Shown: piece by piece, positions 30,796 to 50,238 of the stretch
Layout of the letters: every line of letters begins with the position of its first letter
How positions within the stretch are numbered: position 1 is the stretch's first letter
NCBI GenBank assembly: GCA_910577255.1
Contig: CAJTMH010000004.1
Span: 99,505 to 163,504, forward strand
DNA length: 64,000 nt
Direction: 5' to 3'
From: an uncultured Duncaniella sp.
GTDB lineage: Bacteria; Bacteroidota; Bacteroidia; Bacteroidales; Muribaculaceae
Made by a program: the position numbers and the translations under genes
Notes under the pieces: generated by a model
Told to the model about the DNA's origin: nothing
The model's input: the letters and a program-made list of their open reading frames with translations, nothing else
The model's database searches: none

Positions 30796-31017
30796 AACTA
30801 TCTCTTCAGACCGACAACGGCAAACCAACTCTCGCTCAGATAGTCTGACCGGCCACTCCGGTCAACGCCATCTCCCTCCACATCTCTTGCAGAAAAAGTA
30901 ATCTCTATCTCACTTAAGGATATTATACTCAAGATTGTGGATAGACGACACCAAACGGTATCATCTATTACAAAAGGTCATGCAGGATTGCAACGCCTCA
31001 CACAATTATAATCCGCA

Positions 31018-31077
31018 AAACGAAATGTTCCGGCTTCCCGAAACGAAATGTTCCGCTACCTAAAACGAAACGTACCT
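31018..31077. repeat. three phased direct repeats at the prophage end; candidate transposase-binding sites
   Basis: AAAACGAAATGTTCCG (31018-31033), GAAACGAAATGTTCCG (31041-31056) and AAAACGAAACGTACC (31063-31077). Spacing is 23 and 22 bp, about two helical turns. Confidence 0.5.
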
Positions 31078-31099
31078 TTTTCTCCCCCCTCATAAGTGA

Positions 31100-31140
31100 C
31101 CGCCACAACCCATTTCAAGGCTGTGGCGGTTCTGTTTTTA
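31100..31140 (+). terminator. hairpin plus T-run just inside the prophage end (inward-facing terminator)
   Basis: ACCGCCACA...TGTGGCGGT stem followed by TCTGTTTTT on the + strand. Confidence 0.45.
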
Positions 31141-31174
31141 TGCGATTGTAATGGCATTATAACGCCGTTCTCCC

Positions 31175-31570
31175 CTACTCCAGCCAGCGGTCAACGGTGG
31201 CGATGGCTTCGGTGCGGAAGGCGTTGAAGGCTTCCCACTCGGCTTCGTAATCCCCGGCTTTAGCTATGTCTGGGTTCTTAAACAGCTCTATCTGGTGGGT
31301 CTTGATGGCATCCTCCTCCGTCTGGCTGTAACGGCTGCGGATTATGCCGTTTATCAGGCTGTCACGGCTCATATCGCCAGAGGCTATCAGTGTGCCACCG
31401 TCAGGCTCGGTGCCGGTATAGGCATAGCCTGTAACAGGCTCAGGGGCTTCCTCTCCGTCCCTGACCTCAGGCACATAATCCTCTATGACTTCCTCGTTGA
31501 GGTAAGCCATATAACGGTTGTCATCATATTTGACGAGCGTCTTGCGCTCGGTGTAGATTGCTTTATTCAT
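31175..31570 (-). CDS. hypothetical acidic phage protein (last gene of the tail/DGR operon)
   Basis: Start trimmed to MNKAIYTERK (31570), 2 nt after the RT stop. 131 aa, acidic, no motif recognised. Not Avd-like (not basic, not obviously helical). Confidence 0.5.
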   Translation of the reverse strand: MNKAIYTERKTLVKYDDNRYMAYLNEEVIEDYVPEVRDGEEAPEPVTGYAYTGTEPDGGTLIASGDMSRDSLINGIIRSRYSQTEEDAIKTHQIELFKNPDIAKAGDYEAEWEAFNAFRTEAIATVDRWLE

Positions 31571-31572
31571 TG

Positions 31573-33213
31573 TCACGTGAATTTGTAAAACTTCTTGTTT
31601 AACTTGTTGACCTGCTCCATGACCACGGTCGGACATGGGAGGTCAGCCTTGGTAAAGTCTTTTTCGGCTTGGTCGATCATGATAGCTGAACCTGTGTAGG
31701 AATAGTATTCGGCATCCTTTACCGTAGGGGTGCCGTTGCTGTCCTTTTCCCTCTCATAGACATAGCTCTCATGTTCCTCGCCGTCCACCGCCGTTTGAAC
31801 GACGGTTTGCAGTATGCGCTTGTACCGGATCACGAGGCACTTCTTGGGGCGGGTTTTTCGCTCCTGCCTCACGACACCATCCGGGCCGGTGACCTCGGCG
31901 AAGTAGTCTTCGGTTTCAACCTTGCTGTCCTCTATGGCATAGTCGAGCAGCATTATCTTGAAGTTATCCTCCTGCGCCGGATCTTTACAGACAATATCAG
32001 TAAACGGGCGCTTCTGGTCGTAGCGCATACCCTTGAACGGGATGTTGGCACGACGGTTCTTTATGACCTTTCCAAGTCGCTTTTCCATGTTTATATCGAG
32101 TTTTCTTAATAATGTATGCGAATTTGCGTGGGTGGCGAAACCTATACGGCTGGCACATTCCAACCGGGTTTCCTCCGGTGTCATGCCCTTCTTTTTACAT
32201 TTTGCCACCTGCCGACATAGGGCTTTCTTATTGCGCTTGCGAAGGGCGCGGTGGGTATGAAATGAAACATAGCCGCACACGTCTATGCCTCTGCTCCAGA
32301 CCGGGCGCACGTTCCAGTTCCGGTTGACCTCTATCAGATAATCCCGGGCAAGTACCATTATGCACATCTCCGTGACAAGGTGTAAGAATGTCTTGTCACG
32401 ATGGAGCATGACTATATTGTCGGCAAATCTGAAATACTGTATCGGTTCACTTATATAGCGGTCAAACTTGCCGACCATATAAGCCACTCCCCTGCCTAAT
32501 TCATCCGCCTGTTCCTTCGTGCGGCAGGTCACGAGGCTGTCGCTGACATAACGGTTACGCCAATATGCGAGCCTTTCGGGGTCTCCGGCTATACCGAAAA
32601 TCCCTACCGCGTCATGGTCAAACTTGGCTAAAAAGAAATTTGCTAATATCTGCGAGATCTTGACCCCTAAAGGCAGCCCCTGACGGAAGCTGTCGATAAA
32701 TTCATCGAGGAACCGCAACAGTTTTGGGTCTTTGATTTTAGTCCTGACCCGTTCTTTCATCAGGAAATGTGCGATATTCTGGAAATAGTGGTGGGCGTCA
32801 AGCTGAACGAAATACCACGTGCTTTCCGGATCAGTATAAAGCTCCTTGCGCAGCAGGTTGATGAAATCATGGGTGCCGCGTCCCTTGACGCAGGAGCACG
32901 ACCGCCGGATGAACGTGTCGGTAAACAGACGCTCGGTCTGAAGCAGCGGCGCCCACTGGCGCACATGGTCACGCACGGGAAGTTTGCTCACGATCCTGCG
33001 CTTGGGCTCGAAAATCTCCTCGTCCTGATACTCGGAGGTATGCCCGGTGCCGTCCCGGTATTCAGCCAGAAGTTCCATGAGGTTGGCTTTGAGGTTTGCC
33101 GCGAAGCGCTGCACATTGTCGCGCCGCTCTTTATATTCGGCAAAGCCCCGGAAAGCCGCCTCATAGTTCTCGATGGTCTCAATACGAGGAGATATGTATC
33201 CTCGTCGTTTCAT
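31573..33213 (-). CDS. DGR-type reverse transcriptase with ~180-aa C-terminal extension
   Basis: RT motifs: FVQLDAHHYFQNI (motif A Asp), LPLGVKISQILANFFL (the LGxxxSQ signature of DGR RTs) and YFRFADNIVML (motif C, FADN in place of YxDD). Lies adjacent to the TR. Confidence 0.85.
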   Translation of the reverse strand: MKRRGYISPRIETIENYEAAFRGFAEYKERRDNVQRFAANLKANLMELLAEYRDGTGHTSEYQDEEIFEPKRRIVSKLPVRDHVRQWAPLLQTERLFTDTFIRRSCSCVKGRGTHDFINLLRKELYTDPESTWYFVQLDAHHYFQNIAHFLMKERVRTKIKDPKLLRFLDEFIDSFRQGLPLGVKISQILANFFLAKFDHDAVGIFGIAGDPERLAYWRNRYVSDSLVTCRTKEQADELGRGVAYMVGKFDRYISEPIQYFRFADNIVMLHRDKTFLHLVTEMCIMVLARDYLIEVNRNWNVRPVWSRGIDVCGYVSFHTHRALRKRNKKALCRQVAKCKKKGMTPEETRLECASRIGFATHANSHTLLRKLDINMEKRLGKVIKNRRANIPFKGMRYDQKRPFTDIVCKDPAQEDNFKIMLLDYAIEDSKVETEDYFAEVTGPDGVVRQERKTRPKKCLVIRYKRILQTVVQTAVDGEEHESYVYEREKDSNGTPTVKDAEYYSYTGSAIMIDQAEKDFTKADLPCPTVVMEQVNKLNKKFYKFT

Positions 33214-33394
33214 TGTGTCTCGGTGTCATGGGTGTCTTAATGTGTCATTTTGGGTCAAACCGCAGTGTGATCTGCAATTTTCTCTTGCTTCGTTACCGTC
33301 GGCTGGAATCGTTGATTCCATCTACCGGCACTGCCCGCATTTCGTTTGTTTTTCGCCTTGGGGCGAGGCCCTGTCACCCCGCTTCTGGATTGTT

Positions 33395-33516
33395 GAGGGG
33401 CGAGCCGATGTTCGCATTGGCATTCGTGGGAGCGTTGTTCACATTGACCGCTCCTACGCCCGCATTGCCACCGTTGTTGGCGTTGGCGCCGCGAAACACA
33501 GCACGGAAGCCCGAAG
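33395..33516 (-). repeat. DGR template repeat (TR)
   Basis: 122-nt non-coding copy of the target gene 3' segment. In the VR frame it reads SGFRAVFRGANANNGGNAGVGAVNVNNAPTNANANIGSPL, with 10 AAY Asn codons and 24 adenines in total. Confidence 0.8.
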
Positions 33517-33557
33517 ACCGACTCTTGGACGACAGCAGCCCGATTGTTAAATCAACG

Positions 33558-33565
33558 CAAATTTA
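33558..33565 (-). promoter_or_regulatory. -7 promoter box (TAAATTTG) upstream of TR; candidate promoter of the TR-RT transcript
   Basis: Minus strand TAAATTTG lies 42 nt upstream of the TR 5' boundary. Confidence 0.35.
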
Positions 33566-33758
33566 ACACTTTTTCGTCTATCGAGACCGATATAAACATG
33601 GAAATATGTCAATGTTCTCTTTGCCCCCATTGCTGACGGGTGTCGGAACAAGTCCGACACGGGGGCTCCCTACGGTCGCCGGGTGCTTTGCCTTCGGCGC
33701 GTGCCAGGAACACCATGCACACACCGGACACCGGGCACCCTTTGACCTCCTGACCACT

Positions 33759-35234
33759 TTAGGCCACCGCGTAATACTCCGGCTCCAACGAGAACTCCTC
33801 TGCGAAATCGCAGAGGGGAGAGCCGATGTGCGCATAGGCATCCGAGACAGCGTTGTACACATCGACCGCACCACAGCCCGCAGGGCCACCATCGTTCGCA
33901 CTGGCACCACGGAAGACAGCACGGAAGCCCGAAGTGACGTTACCGTTGTTCCAGAAATAGTCACATTGGTAGGTAGATTCACTGCCGCCCGACTGGGTAG
34001 GCCACATCTCAAGATTATCGTAGCTCATCTTTATGATATAGCCGGAAGCGATCGGAGACGTTGATTTCAATACCATCCCGGCGGTGGAACCGTAGGTGTA
34101 GGTTCCATAGATGCTCGGGGTAACCCAATGTCTCATTGACTTGTCGGCATTCGCCTCGCCAAGTTCATCCTCGCTTACACGCCAGATATAGCCGAAGAAG
34201 TTTTTAAGACCGAAGAATACTGGTACTTTGGCGGTGAATACTGTCGTGCCGTCGGCATTAACTATCGGGATCTCTTTCACTCCGAGACCGTCTGCCATAT
34301 CGACGCCGGCGCTCATGTGCAGTATCGGATTATTACCGTTATAATTACTCCAGCTCGTCCAGTCCCAGTTGGTCACACCGGTGCCGAAGCCGCCTTGATA
34401 GAGCCCGTTGGCGTCCTTGTTGGCGTTGAAGGCTGCCTGAACGTTGCGGGTGCCCATGACTATCTCGACAAGGATCTTTACCACGGCTGCGGCTCTCATT
34501 GTGCCCGCAAGCCATCCTGCCCCGTTCTTATGGGCCGCCGCCGCGAACTGGGCGGTGCTTCGGTTCGTGGCGCAATGGCCGAGCAAGGAGCGGTAGGTGT
34601 CATCCCACCCCGAGGTGTTGTTGCCGCCACGGTACTTGACATCATCGTTGATATAGCTGACAAGGGTGTCGGTGTCGCGGTCAAGGGCCGCAAGGCCGGT
34701 GGCGCTGAGAGAGCCCACCGGGATACGGTAGTTGTACTGTCCTTTGATAGGATACAGGCTCACGGCTTCAAACTCAAGATTGCCCTGCGTCCACTTGGCG
34801 AAGTAGAAGGGTTTGCCCCACCCCCACTGATAATGCCCCATGCTTCCGTCGAGCTTGGCGGTCTCGCCATTTGCAAAGCGGTAGTGGTTGGTGGGGTCGA
34901 GCTTGCGCCGGCTGTGGTCGTTCTTGACAAGGTAGCCGCCAAGACCGAGTATATCCTTGAGGTTTTTTAGCATCTCAAGGCTGCCACAATAGGTGGCTGC
35001 CGCAGGGGTGGCGAGGTCTGTGCGCCATACCCTGCCGCACCACGGGGCGTTTGCCATATTGACGGCCGCTGTAAGGTCCATGCACTGGCTGGCGCCGCTT
35101 TTGGTGTCGAAAACCTCTATCTTCTTGTCGGTGGCATCCGTCGAGGCTGCCGGGAGATCGTCTATCTGCTCGCCGGTTTTGTATGCGTCGAGCATCGATA
35201 ACAGGTCCGCTTCCTGTTGTGCTGTTAATGCCAT
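33759..35234 (-). CDS. DGR target protein: tail-tip receptor-binding protein with C-terminal variable (C-type-lectin-like) region
   Basis: 491 aa. The last ~60 aa (..WNNGNVTSGFRAVFRGASANDGGPAGCGAVDVYNAVSDAYAHIGSPLC..) contain the VR. Sits at the distal end of the tail module. Confidence 0.85.
   Translation of the reverse strand: MALTAQQEADLLSMLDAYKTGEQIDDLPAASTDATDKKIEVFDTKSGASQCMDLTAAVNMANAPWCGRVWRTDLATPAAATYCGSLEMLKNLKDILGLGGYLVKNDHSRRKLDPTNHYRFANGETAKLDGSMGHYQWGWGKPFYFAKWTQGNLEFEAVSLYPIKGQYNYRIPVGSLSATGLAALDRDTDTLVSYINDDVKYRGGNNTSGWDDTYRSLLGHCATNRSTAQFAAAAHKNGAGWLAGTMRAAAVVKILVEIVMGTRNVQAAFNANKDANGLYQGGFGTGVTNWDWTSWSNYNGNNPILHMSAGVDMADGLGVKEIPIVNADGTTVFTAKVPVFFGLKNFFGYIWRVSEDELGEANADKSMRHWVTPSIYGTYTYGSTAGMVLKSTSPIASGYIIKMSYDNLEMWPTQSGGSESTYQCDYFWNNGNVTSGFRAVFRGASANDGGPAGCGAVDVYNAVSDAYAHIGSPLCDFAEEFSLEPEYYAVA
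33797..33816 (-). other. 8-bp stem / 4-nt loop hairpin immediately 3' of VR
   Basis: CCTCTGCG-AAAT-CGCAGAGG is a perfect inverted repeat. It overlaps the last 4 nt of TR/VR homology and is absent from the TR copy. Confidence 0.5.
33813..33934 (-). repeat. DGR variable repeat (VR)
   Basis: Ungapped alignment to TR (offset +418) has 98/122 identities. 12 of the 24 mismatches are at TR adenines. Confidence 0.8.
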
Positions 35235-35265
35235 TTGAATTTCGTTTTAATGGTGTTTGAATTTG

Positions 35266-36351
35266 TTATACTACTCTCATTCTCGTGCTGCGCCGGATTT
35301 TGCCGGAGCTTGTCAGGCGCATCCTCGGAGGTCGTACCGTGATGCTGACCTCTTTCCACAGTTCCGTGTTGCCGGGCGGTATCACATAGAAGGAGGTCGT
35401 ACCGGTGCCGGTGACTGTCAGTTCCCCGGAAGGGTTTACTTTCAGGCTGCTCCCCTCCTCCCTCTGATATAGGAGGTTCTGCATTACATAGCTCGGAAGC
35501 AGTTTTGCATCGATACGCTGTGCCTTCTTGTTTTTGGTCGAGATGGTCGCCGGGGCTGACACTTCGAGGATTGCCGGCGCGGCGGCCGACTCCCCGGAGA
35601 CGGCTTTCATCAACGCCTCAAGCTCGACTATTTTCTCCCCTGCCGTCTGTGCCGCCGCGCTTGCGGAGGCTCCCGCATTTTGCGTTTCTGACTTCAGGGT
35701 CGAGAGGTTCTGGGCTTCGGTGTTGGCTGCCGTGGCGGCTCGGTTCGCCGCGAGGGTGGCCGCCTCGGCATTGCCCTTGGCGGTGTTCAGCTCGGCAATC
35801 TTAGCCGCCACGTTGGTCTGACGCTGCGTCTCGTTGGACTGGCGTGCCGTTTCCTGACTCTTGCGGGTCGCCTCGGCGGTCTGACGAGCCGACTCCTGAT
35901 TCTGTCGGGTGGTCTCGTTCGCCTGACGGGTCGCCTCGTTAGCCTCGATCTGCTTACGGGAGTTGTCGGCGTTGGTGGCTGCCGCGTTGGCTTTGGCCGT
36001 CGCCGCCTGTGCCGCCGCTTTCTCGGCGCTTATATCCGTTATGGCGGTCGTAACGCGATTGGCGGCGGCATTGGCGTTGTCGGCTGCGGTGTTCGCCTTG
36101 GTGGTGGCCTGCTGACAGACAGCTATCTGCACATCCACATCTTTTGTCAGCAGCTTCAAGGGGGCGAGGACATTCTTTTCGACTCCGCCCAATGAGTAGC
36201 GTGCCGGAAGGGAGGTTATACCGTCAAGCGACGTAGCTACCTCGATGCGGTCAACCGCCGTACCGTGCGTGCGCAGGTATTCAAGGAACACCGGGGCGAG
36301 CTGGGCGCAGAATGCCTCAAGCTCCATCTGCGGGGTCTGTATCTGTCCCAT
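35266..36351 (-). CDS. tail fiber-like protein: coiled-coil shaft with heptad repeats plus C-terminal bacterial Ig-like (Big_2-like) domain
   Basis: Ala/Asn/Thr/Gln-rich coiled coil (..ATRQANETTRQNQESARQTAEATRKSQETARQSNETQRQ..). C-terminal beta-rich domain (..KVNPSGELTVTGTGTTSFYVIPPGN..). Confidence 0.6.
   Translation of the reverse strand: MGQIQTPQMELEAFCAQLAPVFLEYLRTHGTAVDRIEVATSLDGITSLPARYSLGGVEKNVLAPLKLLTKDVDVQIAVCQQATTKANTAADNANAAANRVTTAITDISAEKAAAQAATAKANAAATNADNSRKQIEANEATRQANETTRQNQESARQTAEATRKSQETARQSNETQRQTNVAAKIAELNTAKGNAEAATLAANRAATAANTEAQNLSTLKSETQNAGASASAAAQTAGEKIVELEALMKAVSGESAAAPAILEVSAPATISTKNKKAQRIDAKLLPSYVMQNLLYQREEGSSLKVNPSGELTVTGTGTTSFYVIPPGNTELWKEVSITVRPPRMRLTSSGKIRRSTRMRVV
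35818..35943 (-). repeat. imperfect 21-nt tandem repeat x6 (encodes heptads xETxRQx)
   Basis: Six consecutive 21-mers begin CTGACG/CTGGCG/CTTGCG/CTGACG/CTGTCG/CTGACG on the + strand. Confidence 0.8.
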
Positions 36352-36362
36352 GGCCCCGCAGC

Positions 36363-36638
36363 TTAGTCGTTGAGCATTTCGGTTATGCAGCCGGGGACGG
36401 CAGCATAGACAGCCGTCACTTCATCTGCCGTGAGGGCATTATAGGGCTTGAGCTGCGTGATCAGGTAATTGCCGGTGGTCTCGAAGCTCACGGTACCGGC
36501 ATCGGCGCTACCCTTCTTTATGGTACCGCTGATTGTGGTGTTGCCGCCGCTCACGATTTTCGTGAAGTGGATCTCGACGGCCTCGGTGACTTTTTCCGGG
36601 GCGTAGTTGGTGGTGGAGTTTTCTGCTTTCTTTTCCAT
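36363..36638 (-). CDS. hypothetical phage protein
   Basis: 91-aa ORF in the tail operon, tightly packed. Confidence 0.45.
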   Translation of the reverse strand: MEKKAENSTTNYAPEKVTEAVEIHFTKIVSGGNTTISGTIKKGSADAGTVSFETTGNYLITQLKPYNALTADEVTAVYAAVPGCITEMLND

Positions 36639-36657
36639 GTTTGATTATTTTTGATGG

Positions 36658-36969
36658 TTAGACATTGTTTTCTATTATATCGACTATCTGCCCGTAGGCT
36701 CCGCACGAATAGGCTTCGGCTGCCACCTCCTTGAGAAGGCTGGCCTCCTCGGTGGTCATCTCAACCGATTCCGGATCGGCCGCTATCTTGCGGCTGATCT
36801 TATGGAGCTCGTATTTCTTCTCCGGAGGCATAGGGGCGCCCCCCACGTTGTTAAGGTTGAAGATTACCATACACAGTGACTCGGCGATGTTGGTTCCTTT
36901 GCCGGTCTTTTCGTTGACCACCTCTTTGCCGAAGCAGTCCACAAACGGTTTGTTGAAGTTCACTTTCAT
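36658..36969 (-). CDS. hypothetical phage protein
   Basis: 103-aa ORF in the tail operon. Confidence 0.45.
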   Translation of the reverse strand: MKVNFNKPFVDCFGKEVVNEKTGKGTNIAESLCMVIFNLNNVGGAPMPPEKKYELHKISRKIAADPESVEMTTEEASLLKEVAAEAYSCGAYGQIVDIIENNV

Positions 36970-37002
36970 TGTTTTTGTATTTTGGAATTTTTACTCATAT
37001 CA

Positions 37003-40000
37003 TTACCATTCCCTCGGGAACTTGTGCTGAACCCATGCGCCGTAATAGGTCACATTGCTTATAGTCACCTGCAATTCCCGATGGTAAATAAAGCACATGG
37101 CATCGCCGCAACTCTCGATAGTCAACGGGCTGGAATAGGTCGCGTAACTTTCGTTATCATAGATTATATAGCTGCGTCCGCTTTTGGTCTCCCATTTCAT
37201 CGTGGAGGAATTATACTCACGGCGGTAACTCCAGCCCGGTATCACCCGCACATAGTTGCCGTTGTTGGAACCACGTTTGATAAACAGGACGTGCCCGTTA
37301 TCGTAGGGCTGCATGTCCGGAAGGGTCAGTCTTATTTCGCGGGTCTTGGACTCGTAGGATTTGCTGCTGTTGGCGCGCCAGTTGAAATGGGTTGAGACAT
37401 ACACGCTGTTGACATCTCGGGCTATGGTGACGCTCTTTGTCGTCGGAACGGTCGTCTGTGTGATACTGTCGTGGCCTATGACCTGAGTTTTCAGTGCGAG
37501 GCCGGAAACGTAGCCACCGCTTATGGCTATGGCGCTGTTGTCCGCAGCTCCACGGGCACCGACAAGAAGGGCGTAGTTGTGACCCAATCCCCACCAGTCA
37601 GAATCATCGTAGTTCTCAAACCGTGCAACACCTCTCGCTCCGGAGGTCGAAGGAAGCACGTTGCCGCCTATCCCGGCGAAACATCCGTGGGCGTCGTTAC
37701 GGAAGATTATGTAGGCGTCGTTGCTGAAATCGGGGCCGTTGGTCAGACCGCTGCCGGACACGACAAATCCTCCGATGTGGGTGGTGCCGTTTGTCTCAAC
37801 ACGGAAAGAGTTGTTCATCGTCACCATGCCGTTGAAGTTGATTTTAGACGCTTGGATGGTAACGGACTCCGCACTCTGGTTTATTGCCGAGATTATGCCG
37901 TCCTTCTCTACCCGCATGGCTATCTGGGTGGAATGCACGTTGATGCTCGCCTCGGCGGTGCTGACGCGTCCGCTCAGGGCATCCACAGTCGTTTTGGTGG
38001 CGTAGATCTGACTGGCGTAGGCGGTGGTCACAAGACCGCTCGTGTTGGTCAGATTGCCGGCGCTGTCGAAGCTGCCGACCACCGTGCTGATTTTGTCCTT
38101 GTTTTGCAGGATATAGCTCACGCTGTCCTGCTGGTTGGTTATATCCTCCCACGTGTTGGAGTTGTCGTAACCGATATAACGGTAGGTGTGTCCGTCAGAG
38201 GTGTTGTGCCACGTGGCACCCACATATTTATGTTCCTGACCGCTGGGCCATGAATTCCATGGATTGCTTGCCTGATTATATACTTTTGCGTCACCGGCGC
38301 TGTTGGCAATGGCCGCGACCGCCTCGATCCTCGCCTTGGCTGTGTCGAGGTCACCCTGAACACCCGCCACTGTCGAGCTTATGGAGTCGGTCTTGACACG
38401 GAGCGCCGAGATGGCGGTCTCGTTGGCGCTTATCCGCGTAGCATAGTTTGTTATGCTTCCTTCGGCCGCATTTAGCCTGACACCGAGCCGTGTGATGTTG
38501 TCGTTAATGTTGTCAATGTAATTTGCATGGAGCGACAGGGTCGCCTCGGCCGCGTCAAGGTCTATGCCGATCTGTGTGACGGTGCCGTTGAGCTTGTCGT
38601 ATTTGTCGGCGTATATTCTTATCTGCTCCTCGGCCGCGTCAAGCTCAATGCCGAGATTGGTGACCGTGCCCTTCAGATTGTTGATATTGGTGCCAAGCAG
38701 CCTGATATTACCGGCTGTCTGAATAATCTGCGTCGAGACCTCTTTTTTGAAGTCATCGAGGGGCTTGTCTGTGACGGATAATATCGACACATACATGTCG
38801 CCGGTGTACTGAAGCACGAAATCCCCTTTGCCGTCCCATGTGCCCTGCCATTGAAGATCCTGCCACTCCATCGAGGAGGTGACAGCCACAGTTGCCGGAA
38901 CCGGGAGGGAACCGGGCTCCGATGTAGCTCCGCTCATTCCGATAGTCAGGGTACCGTCGCTTTTGGCAAAGAAGCAGATGCTCATATAAAGCGTATCTTT
39001 GACATCGACCCATTGGTCGGTCATGTCATTGTGCGCGGGAGGCACATATTCCTTATGGGTGCCGGGCTTCCGGATCAATGCGTTTGCCTGACGGATCATG
39101 CTCTTTTTTATATGCAGCACGTTGCGACCGTCAAGTTGCTCGATACCGGCTATCCTGCCGTCGGCGACATAGGTGTTGCCGTTCATCAGCAACGCTTTGC
39201 CGTTGGAGGTTATCACCTTGCCGTCGTCCTGAACGGTCCATCCGTCCATGGTCTCGTCGAAGGTGGCGTTGCGCAGGTAGTTGTCATCCTCGGTAAGCTC
39301 ATAACGGAGGTTGCTGTACCGGGTGGCGAACATCGCCTTGAGCATCTCTATCTTGGCATCAATGCTCTCGCCCGTGCGCCGCAGCCTAAAATCCCCGACG
39401 GCATATAGGTTGGTCAGCAGCTCGCCGAAGCCGTCGAGCCACCCGAAAAGGTGATGGTGTATGCCTTGAAGATTGCCGAGCCTTCCCTTCAGGTAATTGT
39501 CCGGATCGGTTTTCATTCCATAGACAATATCCATGTAAGGCGTGGCGGTGCCGACCGTGATTATTTGGATCAGACCCTTGCGGTCGGCATCGGTGGCGTT
39601 GTCAACCCTCGTGAACGTGTCGCCCTTGGATATGACATCGGCGGCAGCCCTGCCGTCTGCCGACACGAAGTTTTTTAACTCCACCCAGTCGAGACGGTCC
39701 TCGCCGTCGCTCTGGTCGCCGCAGCCTGCATCGGTGATGATAAGCTCATAGTGCTTGGTGATATAATGGTCGTTCTCGCCAGAGGGCATACCGTTATACT
39801 GCTGCACCATTATGTAGTCATCCTTGCGGAATGGATTGTAGAATTTGCCGTCATGAGTCTGGAGATAGACCCTGCCTGTCGCCGGGTCGTAATGGTCAAC
39901 CTCCATCATACCTGTGAAGATGCGGTTGTCATTCTCGCCCAGCAACTGGGATATCACCATGGTGAAAACACGGAGGGTGCCGCGTATCACTATGTCGTCG

Positions 40001-41877
40001 AACTCGGCGGTATATTTCGTTTCCGGTATGCCGAGGGCGTTCAGAACCTCACGTTTGAATATGGACCACCCTTTGCCGCCGATGAAGCCGGAGATGAAAT
40101 CCTCGCTCGATAGTTGACCCCGGAACTCGGATGCGCCGTTGACCTGCAGCTGCGCAAGCGTAGCCTTGAGCCGGGTGAGCAGTTCACCGAATATGGCGTT
40201 GCCGTCAGCATCGATCTTAGCTCCGCTCAGCCCCTCTTTGTAAGTGCCGACCTCCAGCCCGGCAAGGAACTTGATCAGCCCCGCCGCCTCGTCGTCATGA
40301 AGCCGGGAGAGCGCACGCTTGGCAATCTCCTTGATCGTGCGCAGCGCGCTCAATATGTTTGTATCAGTGAACGGTGTATTGTCACCGGTGCCTATGATAT
40401 CCGGCAACCCCGCTTTTCCGCTCTCGACATAGTTCTTGATGCCGGTTATATTATCCCGCACCTTATCGAGGGTGCGACGGCTCAATGCGTCACTGATCTC
40501 AAGATCCATCTGCGAAGGCAGATTGACCTTACGGGTTATTTTTGTAATGCGGCTGTCTCGATAACCGGGACCGGGAAAATATTTCTCGCTCTCAAGGCGC
40601 ACACGCCGACCTACCGTCAGAACGATATTGTTCTGCTCAATCCATACGTGATCTGTCGGGGCCTTATACACCGCTACGTCAAGGGCGTGGTCGGCATTAT
40701 ATTTGTTTACGGCGTCCAGCAGTTCGGCTTCAGCACGCCTGTAATATTCATCGGGCATCCTGATGTTCCAAGGAATGTACCTGTCACCGGGCTTAGGCAC
40801 CAGCGTCGTGCCCGGCAACTGTGTACCGTCATCGTATGGCCAGATGGTGATGATTTCAAACTCACGGGTAGCGCTGTCAAAATTGACCTCGAAATAATAT
40901 GTGCCGTTATCCTCGTTTCCAAGACCGGCAAGCTCGCTGCCCTCTTGAAACGACACACGCTTTACAAGACCGCCTATCTCATATTGGTTCGGATCAAACG
41001 GCAGGTTATTGTCCTTGAAATAATAAACCGTGAATTTATTGCCGTCCTCGCCGGTAAGTTCCTCACTCCTGACGCTGCTGACAGTACCCGTATAATGAGG
41101 ATATATTCCGGAGAATGCCGCTTCCTCATAATGGTCCACCCTGCTGTATTTATCGGCATTGACTTCCACATAGCGTTGACCGCCGGGAAGGCGAAGCCGG
41201 GACGAACCGTATTTTGTCTGGTCTATGTTTTTGCTGCTTCCGACCGGAAACAGCCTTGTGTAGAATTTTACATTATCAGCATCGCCGCAATCAAGGGAAG
41301 TCAGACCTTTGTCATATCCGAGTGTCAAAGGTTCCCCATGTTCGCAACGACACAAATTAACGGTGGTTCCCTCTCCCCAGTATTCCACACCGACCTTCTC
41401 GGCGAGCTCACGCAGCGCCTCGTCACAATATTTGCCCCGGTAGTCTATAACGATGTTGTCAACGCCTTCGACTATGCCCACTTTCCAGTCGTTCGTGCCG
41501 AAACCGTCATTGATGCATTTTACAATCAACGCAAGATGCTCCCTCGGGGATGCGGTAAGCGTAAACACCGGCTCGTTATCACCGTCCACGCTCTTTATCA
41601 CAAGGAAATTCTTTATAAGGCTCTCGACACCGTACATTTTCAGGTTGTAGATCCATTCGCCGGTGCTTTTCTGCTTGGGACGGTACTGCTTTGTCAGCCA
41701 ATATCGCTCCCACATGAAGTCCGCGTAATCATCGACATCAAGAGCTATATGCCGGGGCAATGTGAAGGACAGGGACAGCACATTATCCCCCTGTATCTCC
41801 TTGACCTGTGTCGATGAGTTTTCAGGGGACAGCTCCGCCTTCAGGATACCTGTTTTGTCGTATATCTTTATAAGCAT
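37003..41877 (-). CDS. large tail tip / host-specificity protein (Tal/gpJ-like)
   Basis: 1624 aa, directly after the Dit-like and tape-measure genes. Internal triple ~33-aa repeat (LGIELDAAEEQI / IGIDLDAAEATL / LGVRLNAAEGSI), as seen in fibre shafts. Confidence 0.7.
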   Translation of the reverse strand: MLIKIYDKTGILKAELSPENSSTQVKEIQGDNVLSLSFTLPRHIALDVDDYADFMWERYWLTKQYRPKQKSTGEWIYNLKMYGVESLIKNFLVIKSVDGDNEPVFTLTASPREHLALIVKCINDGFGTNDWKVGIVEGVDNIVIDYRGKYCDEALRELAEKVGVEYWGEGTTVNLCRCEHGEPLTLGYDKGLTSLDCGDADNVKFYTRLFPVGSSKNIDQTKYGSSRLRLPGGQRYVEVNADKYSRVDHYEEAAFSGIYPHYTGTVSSVRSEELTGEDGNKFTVYYFKDNNLPFDPNQYEIGGLVKRVSFQEGSELAGLGNEDNGTYYFEVNFDSATREFEIITIWPYDDGTQLPGTTLVPKPGDRYIPWNIRMPDEYYRRAEAELLDAVNKYNADHALDVAVYKAPTDHVWIEQNNIVLTVGRRVRLESEKYFPGPGYRDSRITKITRKVNLPSQMDLEISDALSRRTLDKVRDNITGIKNYVESGKAGLPDIIGTGDNTPFTDTNILSALRTIKEIAKRALSRLHDDEAAGLIKFLAGLEVGTYKEGLSGAKIDADGNAIFGELLTRLKATLAQLQVNGASEFRGQLSSEDFISGFIGGKGWSIFKREVLNALGIPETKYTAEFDDIVIRGTLRVFTMVISQLLGENDNRIFTGMMEVDHYDPATGRVYLQTHDGKFYNPFRKDDYIMVQQYNGMPSGENDHYITKHYELIITDAGCGDQSDGEDRLDWVELKNFVSADGRAAADVISKGDTFTRVDNATDADRKGLIQIITVGTATPYMDIVYGMKTDPDNYLKGRLGNLQGIHHHLFGWLDGFGELLTNLYAVGDFRLRRTGESIDAKIEMLKAMFATRYSNLRYELTEDDNYLRNATFDETMDGWTVQDDGKVITSNGKALLMNGNTYVADGRIAGIEQLDGRNVLHIKKSMIRQANALIRKPGTHKEYVPPAHNDMTDQWVDVKDTLYMSICFFAKSDGTLTIGMSGATSEPGSLPVPATVAVTSSMEWQDLQWQGTWDGKGDFVLQYTGDMYVSILSVTDKPLDDFKKEVSTQIIQTAGNIRLLGTNINNLKGTVTNLGIELDAAEEQIRIYADKYDKLNGTVTQIGIDLDAAEATLSLHANYIDNINDNITRLGVRLNAAEGSITNYATRISANETAISALRVKTDSISSTVAGVQGDLDTAKARIEAVAAIANSAGDAKVYNQASNPWNSWPSGQEHKYVGATWHNTSDGHTYRYIGYDNSNTWEDITNQQDSVSYILQNKDKISTVVGSFDSAGNLTNTSGLVTTAYASQIYATKTTVDALSGRVSTAEASINVHSTQIAMRVEKDGIISAINQSAESVTIQASKINFNGMVTMNNSFRVETNGTTHIGGFVVSGSGLTNGPDFSNDAYIIFRNDAHGCFAGIGGNVLPSTSGARGVARFENYDDSDWWGLGHNYALLVGARGAADNSAIAISGGYVSGLALKTQVIGHDSITQTTVPTTKSVTIARDVNSVYVSTHFNWRANSSKSYESKTREIRLTLPDMQPYDNGHVLFIKRGSNNGNYVRVIPGWSYRREYNSSTMKWETKSGRSYIIYDNESYATYSSPLTIESCGDAMCFIYHRELQVTISNVTYYGAWVQHKFPREW

Positions 41878-41900
41878 ATTGTAACATCGTTATAATACGG

Positions 41901-42362
41901 TTAAAAAGATGGTTCCGGCTCCTTGAATGTCACTTTGAAACGGCTTGCCTGAACCCCCTCCTTCCATAGATATGTAAGGGGCTTGTAAGATGTGCTCGAC
42001 ATATAATACATGCGCATGGTAAGACCGATGGAGGGGAAGTTAAATGAAAGCCACCCGTCGGCACCCTGCTTCAAGAACGTTATGAATGCACGATACCGGG
42101 TAAGCCATCCGGTAACCGTCGGTGCGAATATGGCGAAATGCAGGGTAACTTCACGCTCCTCGTTTTTAACATCGAGTTTGTCTGAATATTTGGTGCCGTC
42201 ATGCTCCCGTATATTCACTCCGACATGACTCTTGACCTTGGAAGGTGCCATGATGGCGGTGAGGTTCTCCCTGCCGCCGGCTTTCTCCTCGGTCAGGAAG
42301 GCTCCGAACTCACTCCAGATGTCGATGCCGTTGATTGTAACAAGTCCGTCAAGTCCACACAT
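41901..42362 (-). CDS. distal tail protein (Dit-like), by position
   Basis: 153 aa, between the tape measure and the tail tip protein. Confidence 0.5.
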   Translation of the reverse strand: MCGLDGLVTINGIDIWSEFGAFLTEEKAGGRENLTAIMAPSKVKSHVGVNIREHDGTKYSDKLDVKNEEREVTLHFAIFAPTVTGWLTRYRAFITFLKQGADGWLSFNFPSIGLTMRMYYMSSTSYKPLTYLWKEGVQASRFKVTFKEPEPSF

Positions 42363-42366
42363 AGTC

Positions 42367-45300
42367 TTATATCTTTATTCCGTCACGTATTATCTGATCA
42401 AGTTTCTCGTTGATTTCACGGGTATTCCGGGCCGTGTCCCCGGTATTTTCCTCTATTTTCGCCAAGCGGTCGAGCGCCACACCCATTTTTTGGGAGACAT
42501 CCTCCACATTCTCGTCGATGGAGACAGTGTGCATCTGTACGCTCGTGCCTATCCCTTCGAGTTTGGTGCCCTGATCCTGCGACATGGCGGTATAGACACC
42601 GGCCCTCCCGCTTTGGGACTGCGACTGGGACTCTGAGTCCGGATCGTCAGGGTGGCGTATGTCGATGCCGGCTTTGTCAAACATACCCGCGACGGTCTCA
42701 AGCAATCCTTCAAGCGTGGGGAGATTGCTTCCGTAGCGGTCGATGAGTCCCGCGGTGAGCTTGGCAACCTCGCCCATAAGCTCCTGTTCGGTCATCTTTC
42801 CTTCAGCGTATTTCTCATAAAGAGCGGATATGTCGTCACTGAAGCTCCCCACCACCTTGTCAAGGACTATCGTCCTGAGCATGTCGGTTACTATGTTCCG
42901 GAATGTGTCGGATGCATACTCCTTGAAGGAATCAAGCGCATCCTTGCCGTTGTCGAGCCAGTCCCATAAACCGTCCACGAAGTTGCCGACAAGCGGTTCA
43001 TACAGGGAACTTACATATTCGTGCAGGTTCTGAAGATACTCGTCATATTTCTCCCGAAGCTCGATGAGGGCCTCAAGAGTCTCCTTGGTCTGGCCGACAA
43101 GTTTATTGCCGTAGTTGTCAAGTATCGAACGGGCAAGCTCCTTGTCTATAAGCCCTCTATCATCAAACAGTTCGCCGAGACCGTTTTTGCGCGCCCAAGA
43201 CACAAGGTCTTCGGTTTTCTGGGAATGGCCTCCAATACCCGAACCGAGGAATCCGCTGCTCTTTTTGCGTGTCTCGATACGGAGATTATTGATTGCTGCC
43301 GTAGTGCCTTCTTTATAGCCCCCCTGTCCCCAGATGTCCCGCCACTCGTCCCACCATGACAATGCGGACAGGTTGCCCATCACCCAATTGAATGCTCCGG
43401 TGAGCCAGCCCCCGCCGCTTTGATTGCGGTATATTGCCTGCGCCTCGGCTGCCTTCTTCACATAGGCGGCATAAACCTCGTCATGATATTCACGCCAGTT
43501 TCGCAGGTTCCGCAGGCCGTCCTCGGCAAACCATGTGTCCTCCTCATGGCGGGCATCCATAACGGCTATTCGATACTGGCTCACTGCGTCAGTTAGGGCG
43601 TTGATCTCCTTTACCTTCTCAGCATAGGCTTCGTATTCCTTGAATGCCTTGTTGTTGCCAAGCTCGCTTATCTTCTGCAGTAACTGAACCGCAGTGGAAA
43701 CAAGGGCCAGAATTATCGAGGCTTTCTCGACTGCGGAGACAGCCTCCACGCCGACTTTCTGCACGGTGGCTATTCCGTCGATGGTGTCAGTGACAAAGCT
43801 CCCGATATCCATTATCAGACCCACAATCTCGCCGGCAGTACCTCCGATGGCATTGCCGACACCTTTAATGGCTTCCGTCAGCTGCGAGACGCTATCCCGG
43901 GCTTCCTTCTCTGCCTTGACAAAGTTGTTGCTCGCCCTGACATGCCGGTCCTTTGCCTCGGTGTATTTTTTCAGCGCCTCGCCCATGCTGAGATAGGTGG
44001 CTACAATAACCGGCTTGCCGTTGGCGTCAACGCCTTCGGACTTGAGACCTGTAAAGATTTTGCCTCCGTTGGTCACGGTATCGAGCTGCCGTTTGGCTGC
44101 AGCAAGCTCACGCTGGGCCACCGACAATTCCTGCGCCCTTTTAGACAAAGCACCAAACGGATCACGGCTGTCCAACTCATCCATTATCTCGCGGATTGTC
44201 GTAGTATATTCGCGCAGGTCCTGAGGGTCAAGAACCGAGGACGCTGCGGTCTTGGCTTTCTCAAGCTGTGAAAGAAGTTCGTTCAGGGTCTCGGTCGAGG
44301 TGCCGCGAAGATCCTCAAAGGCGCGGATATAATCGGGCGACTGGCGCAGCACATCGAAGTCATGCGCCATCAGTTCCTTCCCTTTGGATTTTATAGCCTC
44401 GGCCATGGAACGGTCAATCCGCGCCACAGCTTCAGCATCTCCGGCAGATTCAGCCTGTAACCGGGCTTTACGAAGCTCCGCTATCTCGGAGTTATACCGC
44501 TCCTCTATTTCTTTGCGTTGGTCGGCATAGGATTGATATTTATCCAGAAGCTCCTTATAAAGATTGTCCGTGCCGGCTTTCATGGCGGCGTCCGCGCTTT
44601 CCTGCGCCCTCGTGATCTGCTCCTGCTGCTCGGTAGTCAACCCGTATTCATTCAGCCCGACAGTTCCGGCTTCCTTATTCCGTGCGGCAAAATCATCCCG
44701 CATCTTGTCTATCTCGGCACATTGCTTCTCATAGTCAAGAGCTATCTGACGGCGGCGGCGCTCGGCACTGTCGGCCATTTGGTCGATTTCATCCTGCTCG
44801 TTCTGCCAACGGAGCTTACGCAACTCCTCCGCAGCCTTGCGGACTGCCTCCAACCGCTCATCTTTGCCGGGAACGGTCTTAGATTGGCTCTCTACAGTTG
44901 TGGCTGCCATCTGTGGAATTCTGAGTGCTGCAAGGGCGTCCTCAGTCGCCCCGATTTCTTTCTGCAGATCACCCACGCGTTTTTCAGCTTCATCAGCGGC
45001 CGCCTTTATCTGACGGTCACGCTCCTGAAGGGCAAGCCTGTTGCTTTCTGAGTTATATGTCTGCGCATCACTGACTTCATAGGTGTAAGTTTTCCACGTC
45101 CTTCCGACACCGGCAGAGGTCACGGCATAGTGATCGTGAGCGACCTCCCGTACCCCCTTCATGCCACGTGCCTTTGCATCAGCGTAACTAACCTCATCAC
45201 CTTTGGATTTGACACCGTACCGGGCATTGCGCCGGGCAAGTTCCTGCTTCTCGATCATCGTCGAGTAAGCGCCGGTGACAGCCTTGTCAAGAGCAGCCGC

Positions 45301-46545: not shown

Positions 46546-46551
46546 GCTTTT

Positions 46552-46887
46552 TCAATGTTTCAGGTTGCTTTTGAAAAATCCGGCTACTTCTGCAGCCTGC
46601 TCTTCCGGAGTGGCGTTTACAATGTTATTGCCGGAAGATGATTTGGGGCTTTTGTTTGTCTTTTTGTAATGAGGAGCATCACTCAACATCATTATCAAGG
46701 TCTGATAGTTCACCTTGTTAAGGATGTAGTCAACACTCCATCCTGTGACGTCGGCGATCTGCCATATAAATCCGAAGATGCTATGGGAGCTTTCATAACC
46801 GCTCGTTAACTCATCTTCGCCTTTCGGCTCAGTCTCGGCTTCATCGGATTCGTCCGCTCGGCCAATCTGATAATATTCGTAAAAGGG
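46552..46887 (-). CDS. tail assembly chaperone, -1 frame extension (T part of a G-T fusion)
   Basis: Frame -1 relative to 46806..47294, entered at heptamer C_CCT_TTT (46887-46881). Continues YEYYQIGRADESDEAE... to the stop at 46552. Confidence 0.55.
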   Translation of the reverse strand, partial: PFYEYYQIGRADESDEAETEPKGEDELTSGYESSHSIFGFIWQIADVTGWSVDYILNKVNYQTLIMMLSDAPHYKKTNKSPKSSSGNNIVNATPEEQAAEVAGFFKSNLKH

Positions 46888-47294: not shown

Positions 47295-47306
47295 GCTCTG
47301 TCAGGA

Positions 47307-48656: not shown

Positions 48657-48681
48657 CGCTGTGTTTGGTTTTAATTGTTGT

Positions 48682-49143: not shown

Positions 49144-49145
49144 CT

Positions 49146-50219: not shown

Positions 50220-50238
50220 TTGCGGTTATTTTTGTTGG

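Follow-up and report, generated by a model that had tools for sequence, protein, structure and literature searches.

Among the described diversity-generating retroelements (DGRs), that of phage BPP-1 has the order mtd VR - avd - TR - brt; IMH plus hairpin is a known requirement there and is enough at the target, and the donor functions work in trans (PMC3240598). In hankyphage (Bacteroides phage p00) the activity of the DGR was demonstrated experimentally (PMC6199706, PMC12135933). An Avd-less group, 'Lineage 3 / 3A' of Wu et al. (2018), is restricted to Bacteroides and relatives and usually has a single target and few non-A-to-N differences, and C-terminal extensions occur in about 20% of DGR reverse transcriptases (RTs) in general (PMC5758913). 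Trans use of the TR of another locus was inferred within one genome (PMC10907252).

The window, which is the whole 64-kb stretch of DNA analysed here, contains a Mu-like transposable prophage of about 38 kb (31003..64000, no strand assigned) that extends past the right window edge, its end having been set at 31003 as the point where copies diverge. The gene set comprises Gam, MuB-like, ThyA, Dam, Mu-F, Mu portal, terminase, capsid and tape-measure genes, and a transposase (phrog_310, E = 2.8e-45) was found on L059, the prophage continuation. At least eight different host contexts hold identical phage copies. The DGR cassette (31175-35234) forms the final 4.2 kb of the prophage, and the locus is a genuine, active DGR at the end of the tail genes. 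This supports the sequence-only reading, which had described a transposable Bacteroidales prophage whose tail module ends in a DGR; the 491-aa ORF, VR, 122-nt TR, 546-aa RT, LGxxxSQ-type motif (LGVKISQ) and TAAATTTG that it listed are all present. No further TR/VR repeat copy was found in the 64-kb window or in the remaining prophage. The DGR is probably a working, Avd-less one, carried by a Mu-like phage that is widespread among mouse-gut Bacteroidales (Muribaculaceae and Bacteroides).

The resemblance to hankyphage, which had been suggested in the same reading, stands for the architecture and fails for sequence, RNA family and target size. Both are Mu-like transposable temperate phages of Bacteroidales with a broad host range, both have the DGR behind the tail genes and close to an end of the genome, and both have an RT with a C-terminal extension and genes for ThyA and Dam. 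In contrast, there is no nucleotide similarity, the RT and terminase are 27% and 32% identical, the hankyphage RT has a canonical RYCDD without insertion, its spacer RNA is RT-3 instead of RT-17, its VR occupies residues 2188-2225 within a large ORF (PMC6199706) compared to a target of 491 aa, and an Avd is annotated by its authors. The window phage is only distantly related to hankyphage. Lineage 3 / 3A, by its published description, resembles the window DGR in having no avd; the xDN motif, the RT-17 RNA and the acidic 131-aa ORF described below are unmentioned in PMC5758913.

The RT of 546 aa (31573..33213, minus strand) was recognized by its motifs, its AF2 model (pLDDT 77) and structural matches. 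Motif 4, LGVKISQ (residues 182-188), has the form [LIV]GxxxSQ also seen in BPP-1. The top PDB matches were the structures 8UB7, 8UBD and 8UBF of the BPP-1 DGR RT (E = 3e-15), which outranked the G2L4, group II, DRT9 and retron RTs in the structure search, and no full-length fit was obtained for the defence-RT families. The RT belongs to the same clade as that of BPP-1, the best structure match, 8UB7, being 24% identical, and the placement among DGR RTs proposed earlier is thereby confirmed. Differences from BPP-1 are the length (546 aa vs 328 aa), a helical insertion of about 50 aa between motifs 4 and 5, a beta-rich C-terminal domain (about residues 400-546), and motif C, which is RFADN (xDN instead of YxDD) in the window and YMDD in BPP-1. 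The DGRs of crAss-like phages (e.g. cr52_1, cr50_1) have RTs that are 28-32% identical over the N-terminal 370 aa and homologous tail proteins as targets (37% identity over residues 197-484 for cr50_1), whereas these RTs have a canonical YADD without insertion and the genomes are lytic or pseudolysogenic and crAss-type, the window phage being Mu-like.

A conserved acidic ORF of 131 aa (pI 4.4; 31175..31570, minus strand) abuts the RT and is found directly after it in 19 related loci with 27-92% identity. It gave no match in Pfam, PHROG or PDB, and it is possibly a family-specific accessory gene. Its candidacy as Avd was rejected, since it is not Avd-like and its pI contrasts with that of the basic Avd proteins (9.5 +/- 0.7; PMC5758913). 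Avd is missing from the DGR family to which the window locus belongs, and the absence of an avd gene is a further difference from BPP-1.

The target gene (33759..35234, minus strand) is an ORF of 491 aa that closes the tail module; the encoded variable protein matches phrog_5302 'tail protein' (E = 7.6e-55), and its homolog clusters have up to 18,023 member sequences. The significant PDB matches of its AF2 model (pLDDT 85.6) were only DGR variable proteins, namely TaqVP 5VF4 (E = 2.4e-5) and Mtd 1YU0-4, so that the proposed check of the C-terminus for a C-type-lectin fold came out in favour of the sequence-only reading. BPP-1 has the same arrangement, a receptor-binding tail gene whose product takes a DGR-type variable fold and whose 3' end contains the VR. 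The VR (33813..33934, minus strand) codes for residues 434-474 and forms with the TR an ungapped repeat of 122 nt (VR 33934-33813, TR 33516-33395). These limits had been given correctly, but the VR stops 54 nt short of the stop codon and thus does not coincide with the last 120 nt of the gene.

Directly 3' of the TR/VR homology there is a hairpin, CCTCTGCG-ATTT-CGCAGAGG (33797..33816, minus strand), that overlaps the GC-rich VR end GGCTCTCCCCTC (33824-33813). Its DNA fold (-8.9 kcal/mol, z = -2.96) was matched by 0 of 200 shuffles, compared to z = -0.03 for the equivalent flank of the TR in the same test. In the close relatives compared, the stem is conserved, the loops vary, and the hairpin is absent at all TRs. 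The GC-rich VR end together with the hairpin (IMH plus hairpin) is a candidate target-recognition element; BPP-1 likewise has a GC-rich VR end, a hairpin only at the target and adenine-specific variation, its loop being GRNA instead of ATTT and the window phage being Mu-like.

The TR (33395..33516, minus strand) is non-coding, contains 24 adenines and reads ...ANANNGGNAGVGAVNVNNAPTNANAN... in the VR frame. This allele, TR-a, is identical in six other copies (L048-L051, L065, L086) and in 7/7 copies of the P0127 clone, whose VRs agree with it. Other copies of the clone to which the window belongs also have TR-a-concordant VRs (L049; P0135, 37 contigs), which shows that the resident TR-a is functional. 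The Bacteroidetes-type -7 promoter box TAAATTTG lies 42-49 nt upstream of the TR (33558..33565, minus strand); a TAnnTTTG box is present 33-55 nt upstream of the TR in 20/25 related loci with divergent flanks, the chance expectation being about 3% per locus, and it is likely to act as the promoter of the TR / RT-17 / RT transcript. As in BPP-1, a structured spacer RNA separates the TR from the RT, which follows shortly downstream. This RNA (33268..33370, minus strand) is a full-model match to Rfam RF03020 'RT-17 RNA' (54.7 bits vs a gathering score of 40.4, E = 5.9e-9), also found in L008, L012, L023, L034 and L067, with compensatory changes at 11/22 predicted pairs in an independent family alignment. 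Its position is that of the BPP-1 spacer (Sp), which belongs to a different family, RT-10 (PMC5737381).

The comparison of the window VR with the resident TR showed 24 mismatches, 12 at adenines and 12 at non-adenine positions, 8 of the latter at third codon positions. The sequence-only reading had correctly counted 12/24 changed adenines, 9 of these 12 at positions 1-2 of AAY codons, and had missed the 12 non-adenine mismatches; with these counted, adenines account for just 50% of the mismatches (hypergeometric P = 1.6e-4). The TR/VR pairs of 35 related loci differ almost exclusively at adenines and have 0-1 non-A mismatches each, so the adenine bias expected of relatives was found there. The half share of non-adenine mismatches, their prevalence at third codon positions and the FADN motif in place of YxDD would agree with a decaying or inactive DGR, in which the adjacent TR and VR drifted since the last homing and synonymous VR changes were tolerated. 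The unusual motif C, together with published non-A-to-N differences (23% of DGRs, as many as 11 per target), which were ascribed to atypical incorporation (PMC5758913), could also suggest an RT that misincorporates at non-adenine template positions.

Both of these explanations are extremely improbable. When the VR was compared with the TR of the sister lineage (L008), only 9 mismatches were left, 9/9 at adenines and none at other positions (P = 2.6e-8), and 12/12 of the non-A mismatches to the resident TR equal the sister-lineage base. All 12 therefore fit one specific foreign TR allele, contrary to drift. Against decay it also counts that the resident TR, and not the VR, departs from the family consensus, that both the window clone and the P0127 clone include TR-a-concordant VRs, and that FADN is invariant across the family, the members of which have pure adenine signatures. 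Against low-fidelity mutagenesis, the same fixed non-A bases recur in many independent VR alleles instead of being random, they match the TR of another lineage, and no more than one non-A mismatch was found in any of the 35 relatives sharing these RT motifs. A template TR-x was inferred solely from the discordant VRs (CAT at idx 50-52, T43) and was later found as the cis TR of a co-circulating lineage, P0123-type (L089-L092), the RT of which is 88.6% identical. On this comparison the most recent template of the window VR was probably that of a related phage instead of the adjacent TR-a, and the 12 non-adenine mismatches would more plausibly be the record of a template exchange between phages than of decay or low-fidelity mutagenesis. 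Four of the 12 adenine changes (idx 50, 51, 61, 64) are template-template differences and not mutagenesis, which takes them out of the mutagenesis signature described earlier; the adjacent TR/VR pair as such is not valid DGR evidence in this copy, because the VR, being apparently foreign-templated, was not written from it.

The activity of the element follows from the copies with identical RT, which are identical over 6 kb save for the VR and, in some, the TR. In 11 such copies zero variable columns were found over about 6 kb outside VR and TR, the TR differing only in some of them. Of the 20 variable VR columns 19 fall on sister-TR adenines, the other (idx 51) being the adenine by which TR-x is told apart. 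This restriction to template adenines is again at odds with decay, and it is the heterogeneity that had been predicted for the VR. Within a sub-clade having the same TR, TR-b, 28/28 VR differences are at TR-x adenines but only 17/28 at TR-b adenines, two of its members (L047 and L053) sharing the host junction, which suggests that diversification went on under a non-resident template. The clade of L054, L055 and L087 has a common tract and TR-a', yet three VR alleles. VRs assembled from metagenomes are possibly consensus paths instead of single haplotypes, which could not create the fixed non-A markers.

The comparison copies come mostly from metagenome assemblies, and VR/TR repeats do cause breaks or collapses during assembly (L077, L098 and many Logan contigs); an assembler might accordingly have spliced the VR of a co-occurring relative into the phage contig. 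This is highly improbable, as more than 10 assemblies, made independently in different projects, show the pattern and the clone-donor matches at the VR edges (up to 19 and 12 nt) are below the usual assembly k-mers.

The exchange could also be due to homologous recombination between co-infecting relatives without retrohoming in trans, either by moving VRs made in cis in a TR-x phage into the clone or by placing a TR-a segment onto many VR backgrounds. The locus is indeed mosaic at a larger scale, with 98-100% identity to L011 over 36200-34401 that stops abruptly at about 34400; the TR alleles are islands of divergence inside conserved flanks; and the tract 33807-33694 in L054/L055/L087 has the SNP pattern of the P0123-type lineage, which left a genuine recombination tract in this one sub-clade of the window phage. 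On the other side, the donor differs from the window clone up to 33935 and again from 33807 on, and in the window, L047, L051, L053 and L056 donor markers occur only between 33915 and 33819 with native flanks. Because the donor flanks differ right up to the VR, at least six independent alleles would each require crossovers within the short exact matches at its edges, at most 19 nt (5') and 12 nt (3'). All foreign-type alleles on the window backbone are linked to the RT of the clone and to TR-a or TR-a', no TR-x phage with the flanks of the window clone was found among 14 copies of the clone and 7 of the P0127 clone, and the VR differences arose inside sub-clades marked by TR-b or the tract. 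Recombination is thus an unlikely source of the foreign VRs, and the confinement of donor markers to the TR-homologous segment favours retrohoming in trans.

It seems rather likely, judging from these sequence patterns, that the VR was rewritten by retrohoming in trans from a P0123-type TR-x in a working Avd-less DGR. By homology with BPP-1, a transcript with the TR and the downstream RT-17 RNA would be copied by the RT into cDNA, random bases entering opposite template adenines; the cDNA would replace the VR at the 3' end of the tail-protein gene, presumably steered by the GC-rich VR end and the VR-only hairpin, and about 20 codon positions of the C-lectin-type receptor-binding surface would be re-randomised. 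The outcome of this mechanism, adenine-only variation limited to the VR, was observed here. For the transfer, a cell would hold both the window phage and a P0123-type relative, whose RT/TR-RNA complex would target the VR of the window phage; alternatively, the TR RNA of the relative might be used by either RT. The VR recognition elements are the same in both phages save one loop base, and the P0123-type tract in L054/L055/L087 speaks for co-residence of the two lineages. In Thiohalocapsa PB-PSB1 the trans-TR targets lie within one bacterial genome, at loci that are incomplete or remote (PMC10907252), whereas the TR and RT next to the window target are its own, intact and functional, and a different phage would have supplied the template.

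Derived bases common to all VR alleles were found within sub-clades, T32 and T98 in the TR-b clade and C32 in the TR-a' clade; about 3 such unchanging shared non-A bases were observed vs 0.3 expected under independent full rewriting. This excess, together with the states at every site differing within a clade, which fit an ancestral A, would agree with a process independent of the resident TR, in which the VR templates itself, its adenines being mutated cumulatively, e.g. via read-through transcripts, and its own non-A bases persisting regardless of the TR. Such a process is improbable: a mechanism or precedent is not known, VR transcripts would lack an RT-17 RNA immediately downstream, the origin of a TR-x-type VR on this backbone would still need explanation, and selection or partial-length homing could yield the shared sites. 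With retrohoming in trans as the preferred reading, the shared bases exceed the prediction of independent full rewriting and may point to partial events, to selection or to some further process. Ordinary recombination with the donor lineage occurs too, as is seen in the L054 clade. Foreign-type VRs make up about 10/14 alleles in the window clone compared to 0-2 per clone in relatives, a frequency that trans-homing alone leaves without explanation. The same foreign-template phenomenon was found in other clones (L071; L090/L091).

The locus is a diversity-generating retroelement (DGR), in which a 491-aa target ORF assigned to the PHROG class 'tail protein' (33759-35234, minus strand) contains at its 3' end the variable repeat (VR, 33934-33813). 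The VR forms a 122-nt ungapped direct repeat with the template repeat (TR, 33516-33395), which is preceded by a TAAATTTG box (33565-33558, minus strand) and lies 181 nt upstream of a 546-aa reverse transcriptase (RT, 31573-33213, minus strand) bearing the motif LGVKISQ. All these elements, proposed by a sequence-only reading of the window, were recovered where that reading had placed them. Of 25 related loci, 20 have a TAnnTTTG box, a putative promoter element, at a distance of 33-55 nt ahead of the TR.

The placement of the RT among DGR enzymes was confirmed, DGR RTs being nearer to it than group II, retron or defence RTs. Its N-terminal 370 aa showed 24-32% identity to phage DGR RTs (crAss-like, hankyphage, BPP-1; tblastn/BLASTP). 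The AF2 model of the RT (pLDDT 77) gave the BPP-1 DGR RT 8UB7 as best PDB match (E = 3e-15); the DGR-RT structures 8UB7, 8UBD, 8UBF, 8UBC and 8UBE occupied ranks 1-3, 5 and 6, with G2L4 at rank 4, and group II intron, DRT9 and retron RT structures ranked below 8UB7. Searches of the RT against group II, DRT, retron and defence-RT models gave partial matches only, all below threshold. The AF2 model of the target (pLDDT 85.6) matched in the PDB only DGR variable proteins (TaqVP, Mtd), with E-values of 2.4e-5 to 8e-3 and low global TM-scores of 0.2-0.4; a C-type-lectin (or Ig) fold displaying the VR is possible. The TR/VR layout recurred in 35 related loci with RT identities of 42-95%, where each pair differed at 6-17 positions, of which none or one was non-adenine. 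The adenine-specific signature holds for these relatives.

The RT length of 546 aa is conserved in a large Bacteroidales family, throughout which motif 4, LGVKISQ, of the [LIV]GxxxSQ type, is invariant. This family is set apart from the Brt, hankyphage, crAss-like, LBR48 and Perkons RTs by an extra helical segment of about 50 aa inserted between motifs 4 and C, by a beta-rich C-terminal domain and by motif C itself, which is RFADN in the family and R[YN]xDD in the others. The canonical YxDD is absent from the window RT; RFADN aligns with RYMDD of Brt and RYCDD of hankyphage, is invariant in the family and sits at a predicted beta-hairpin turn. The alternative BLASTP alignment, in which YMDD of Brt stands opposite RYVSD (221-225), was rejected because that aspartate is not conserved in the family, and because RFADN is invariant and lies at the predicted turn. 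In an exhaustive profile search, 8 of the 14 representatives of the clade with the insertion had xDN, as did scattered DGR RTs of canonical length; on this distribution xDN is a tolerated variant rather than a lesion, and it is not unique to the family. Judged by the adenine signatures in relatives, RFADN would be compatible with activity. A literature search on FADN in reverse transcriptases returned nothing relevant, and evidence of activity for xDN RTs appears to be undescribed in the literature searched.

No ORF of a size fitting Avd, the small, basic four-helix-bundle accessory protein, occurs between VR and RT. The absence of Avd was already known for Lineage 3 DGRs and does not exclude membership of the class; both Avd-less DGRs limited to Bacteroides and relatives (Lineage 3/3A) and C-terminal extensions of DGR RTs have been described (PMC5758913). 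The window element joins the known Avd-less Bacteroidales phage DGRs. An acidic 131-aa ORF (pI 4.4; 31175-31570, minus strand), the sole neighbour that is conserved, abuts the RT stop codon throughout the family at 27-92% identity and has no match in Pfam, PHROG or PDB. It was considered as Avd and ruled out by its charge and the lack of any homology; it may be an accessory factor of the Avd-less DGR type.

Candidate target-recognition elements, a GC-rich IMH and a hairpin, are found 3' of the VR and are missing from the TR. The hairpin (33816-33797, 8-bp stem and 4-nt loop) lies directly 3' of the TR/VR homology on the VR side only, with a fold z-score of -2.96 at the VR and -0.03 at the TR flank, and is kept in close relatives. 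The same VR-only asymmetry is required for target recognition in BPP-1; the loop, ATTT in the window, differs from the GRNA consensus (PMC3240598). The spacer between TR and RT was identified over its full length as the Rfam RT-17 RNA (RF03020; 54.7 bits against a gathering threshold of 40.4), which occurs across the family and exceeded the gathering threshold in five relatives as well, and an independent alignment showed compensatory changes at 11 of 22 predicted pairs. RT-10 occupies the equivalent position in BPP-1, and Weinberg et al. raised the possibility that further RT motifs have this role in other DGRs (PMC5737381). RT-17 can now be assigned to the DGR family of the window, a link with this RT clade that appears to be undescribed in the literature searched. 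This clade appears to work with an xDN motif C and without Avd; it carries the conserved insertion, the C-terminal domain, RT-17 RNA and the acidic partner ORF, and the window type offers a compact system for the study of Avd-independent mutagenic retrohoming.

The TR/VR pair of the window is less regular than the sequence-only reading had it. The counts of 24 TR adenines, 12 of them changed in the VR, are correct, but a further 12 non-adenine mismatches had been omitted, 8 of which fall on third codon positions of the VR frame. The differences are therefore not limited to TR adenines, which account for 50% of them (12/24, P = 1.6e-4), and 4 of the 12 supposed adenine substitutions proved to be template differences rather than products of mutagenesis. 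Taken alone, the pair would fail the usual DGR adenine criterion. A scan of both strands with adenine mismatches allowed freely found no other repeat copy in the window, only the known pair, which disposes of a better VR elsewhere in it. A hidden second TR outside the window was likewise discarded: the remaining prophage arm (fetched as L058-L063, of which L059 overlaps the window end at 100%) is free of TR-like sequence, and a second TR is absent from the whole prophage.

Comparison with close relatives showed that it is the window VR that carries the family-typical non-adenine bases, the resident template (TR-a) being an unusual allele. When every sampled TR was tested as candidate parent of the window VR, the TR of the L008 type, that of the sister lineage P0122, gave 9 mismatches, all nine at adenines and none at other bases (P = 2.6e-8), and each of the 12 non-adenine differences between the window VR and TR-a corresponded to the base in this TR. 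Decay in situ was rejected on these grounds, since the odd allele is the resident TR and all the non-adenine differences match a foreign one. The foreign template, TR-x (string GGTGGCCATGCGGGCTGTGGTGCGGTC), was reconstructed from seven fully discordant VR alleles; it equals the sister TR except for A at repeat position (idx) 51 (CAT, not CCT). TR-x was later found as the resident TR of a P0123-type phage lineage, whose RT is 88.6% identical to that of the window. The P0122 sister clone was accordingly dismissed as direct donor of most alleles, because idx 51 varies among the VRs and the sister TR has C there, whereas the P0123-type TR matches. A phage combining the flanks of the window clone with TR-x in cis was also considered; the contigs of P0144 and P0147, foreign-type alleles on the backbone of the clone, have TR-a or its one-base variant TR-a', as do those of P0127, the closest variant of the RT, and this candidate was abandoned. 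When IMG/VR and JGI metagenome contigs were searched for exact strings of TR-x and of a clone-specific spacer, each string gave one contig, in collections that hold few copies of the phage. A larger mosaic was present upstream, where 36200-34401 is 98-100% identical over 1.8 kb to the viral contig L011, with a sharp break near 34400 inside the target gene; the C-terminal third of the target is itself mosaic and most closely resembles L008 and L005 by turns.

In the assembly collection, 585 blocks encode exactly this RT protein and about 1,000 more encode close variants, and the usefulness of the window DGR comes mainly from this abundance. Across about 6 kb, ten fetched copies and the window (n = 11) had variable columns nowhere but in the VR and, for some copies, in the TR; 19 of the 20 variable VR columns lay at adenines of the sister TR and the remaining one at the extra adenine of TR-x. 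The heterogeneity predicted by the sequence-only reading was thus observed, being confined among near-identical genomes to the VR and template-adenine positions, with the TR varying too in some copies. Because RT-identical copies vary only in the VR and in some TRs, the VR undergoes diversification within one clone. Most VR alleles, those of the window, L047/L052, L051, L053-L056, L086 and L087, keep fixed non-adenine differences from TR-a, and the foreign-type alleles, about 10 of 14 in the clone, differ mutually at adenine sites interleaved with these fixed markers. TR-a is a functional template, since the VR of L049 is fully concordant with it, the proteins P0135, P0145 and P0146 agree with it too, and the clone of P0127 has TR-a in 7/7 copies and concordant VRs in 2/2. 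In L048 part of the VR seems to have been rewritten from TR-a. A few derived bases are common to each sub-clade, in excess of what full and independent rewriting would give.

Two routes may have brought foreign sequence into the VR. In retrohoming in trans between co-resident phages, a cDNA copied from the TR of a relative would be bounded by the TR-homologous segment. On either side of the VR the donor lineage differs from the clone, as far as 33935 and again from 33807, and in the window, L047, L051, L053 and L056 donor markers are restricted to 33915-33819, between native flanks. Reassortment by ordinary recombination is the main rival; it would have to place both crossovers, repeatedly, within windows of at most 19 and 12 nt, and we regard it as unlikely, although a recombination tract from the P0123-type lineage does exist at 33807-33694 in L054, L055 and L087. 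Retrohoming in trans is consequently the reading favoured for the window VR, and we hold it to be probable. It follows from the tract that the window clone and the P0123-type phage have shared cells. The sub-clades also speak for retrohoming in trans. In the sub-clade with the template variant TR-b, which has a single TR and in which L047 and L053 share one host junction, 28 of 28 VR differences fall on TR-x adenines and 17 of 28 on TR-b adenines; since the tract-bearing sub-clade (L054/L055/L087) also contains three VR alleles, diversification from a non-resident template went on once the present TRs had been established. VRs written from a foreign template between native flanks were found elsewhere, in the P0122 clone (L071, with L011-type markers) and in the P0123 clone (L090, L091). 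In BPP-1 donor functions act in trans, IMH and hairpin being sufficient at the target (PMC3240598), and within one bacterial genome the TR of another locus has been inferred to be used in trans (PMC10907252).

It is conceivable, and we put it forward tentatively, that related DGR phages which share a cell use retrohoming in trans to rewrite one another's receptor-binding genes, so that a phage with its own TR and RT intact has its tropism determinant templated by the TR of a competitor. If the route is retrohoming in trans, co-hosted DGR phages would swap receptor-binding information without recombination, which bears on the evolution of host range in the gut. Wu et al. found non-A-to-N differences in 23% of DGRs, up to 11 per target, and attributed them to non-canonical mutagenesis (PMC5758913). 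The window case shows another cause, a testable one, and, if the proposal is true, many of the catalogued differences would be records of template exchange. An intact DGR target templated by the TR of another phage appears to be undescribed in the literature searched. A TR/VR pair that fails an adenine-bias filter may still belong to a fully active DGR, and surveys will misclassify such pairs if they drop them or treat them as decay. Non-adenine TR/VR differences can serve as a tracer of the template that wrote last, a tracer which successfully predicted a TR allele not yet sampled.

Under the same proposal the TRs would also acquire adenine mutations, as in TR-b and TR-a'. TR-b (L047, L052, L053, L056; 3698-3819, equivalent to window 33516-33395) has nine changes, all at A (7 A>G, 1 A>T, 1 A>C), and TR-a' (L054, L055, L087) has a single adenine change, A32C, with C at idx 32 in all VRs of its clade. 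Adenine-only TR polymorphism suggests occasional homing into the TR, gene conversion or VR-to-TR copying, which would erode the template. The TR and VR of L093 share A71T. In L066, of the sister clone, VR and TR (3287-3408 and 3698-3819) are identical with 0 mismatches, the result of a non-mutagenic homing or conversion event. A TCG (Ser) duplication at the 5' edge of the TR/VR homology (equivalent to 33932-33935; L047, L053, L056) gives a 492-aa target, idx 1 shows a T/G polymorphism and one allele, P0139, lacks 13 aa within the VR; all three are probably by-products of variable 5' cDNA integration. In L077 (2398-3840), L098 (1-1339) and L099 a single copy of the repeat directly continues the target gene and the VR-TR interval is missing, through either repeat collapse in assembly or a real VR-TR deletion. 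L098 and L099 were excluded as further cases of TR adenine mutation, the repeat having probably collapsed. Many short-read contigs begin about 300 nt upstream of the RT, that is, they break in the TR.

The prophage starts at 31003 and extends beyond 64000. Among its genes are those for a Mu-type transposase, MuB, Gam, Mu-F and a Mu portal and, as identical copies occur in many host contexts and insertion sites, it is transposable. The first inter-copy difference towards its far end is a change in CT-repeat length and not the junction. The likeness to hankyphage proposed by the sequence-only reading holds for a Mu-like temperate Bacteroidales phage with a DGR and does not extend to relatedness to p00 at species or genus level: megablast gave no nucleotide match to hankyphage p00, and amino-acid identities of 32% for the terminase and 27% for the RT indicate a distant relation only. 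Hankyphage p00 has an RT-3 spacer RNA and a YCDD RT without the insertion, whereas the window phage has RT-17 RNA and a FADN RT with it. In a related Mu-like phage (ERZ1755896 NODE_128), the place taken by ThyA/Dam in the window phage is occupied by a 383-aa RT of hankyphage type with RYCDD (L061, 14888-16039, minus strand), with a weak TR-like match nearby (16246-16291); related phage backbones seem to have exchanged DGR cassette types.

A Cas9/Cas1 locus is found about 1 kb from the far end of the prophage in several hosts (L058, L060 and L062, 1-2700; L062 from the complete genome CP039393.1). The host DNA of the window has a tRNA-Leu (8254-8336, plus strand) at a long distance from the junction at 31003, and the insertion site of the prophage is not a tRNA. 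By their source annotations, identical or near-identical RTs (cluster members P0121 and P0122) occur in Muribaculum/Muribaculaceae and in Bacteroides (e.g. B. acidifaciens; 'MULTISPECIES: Bacteroidales'), which points to hosts in more than one family, a breadth also reported for hankyphage.
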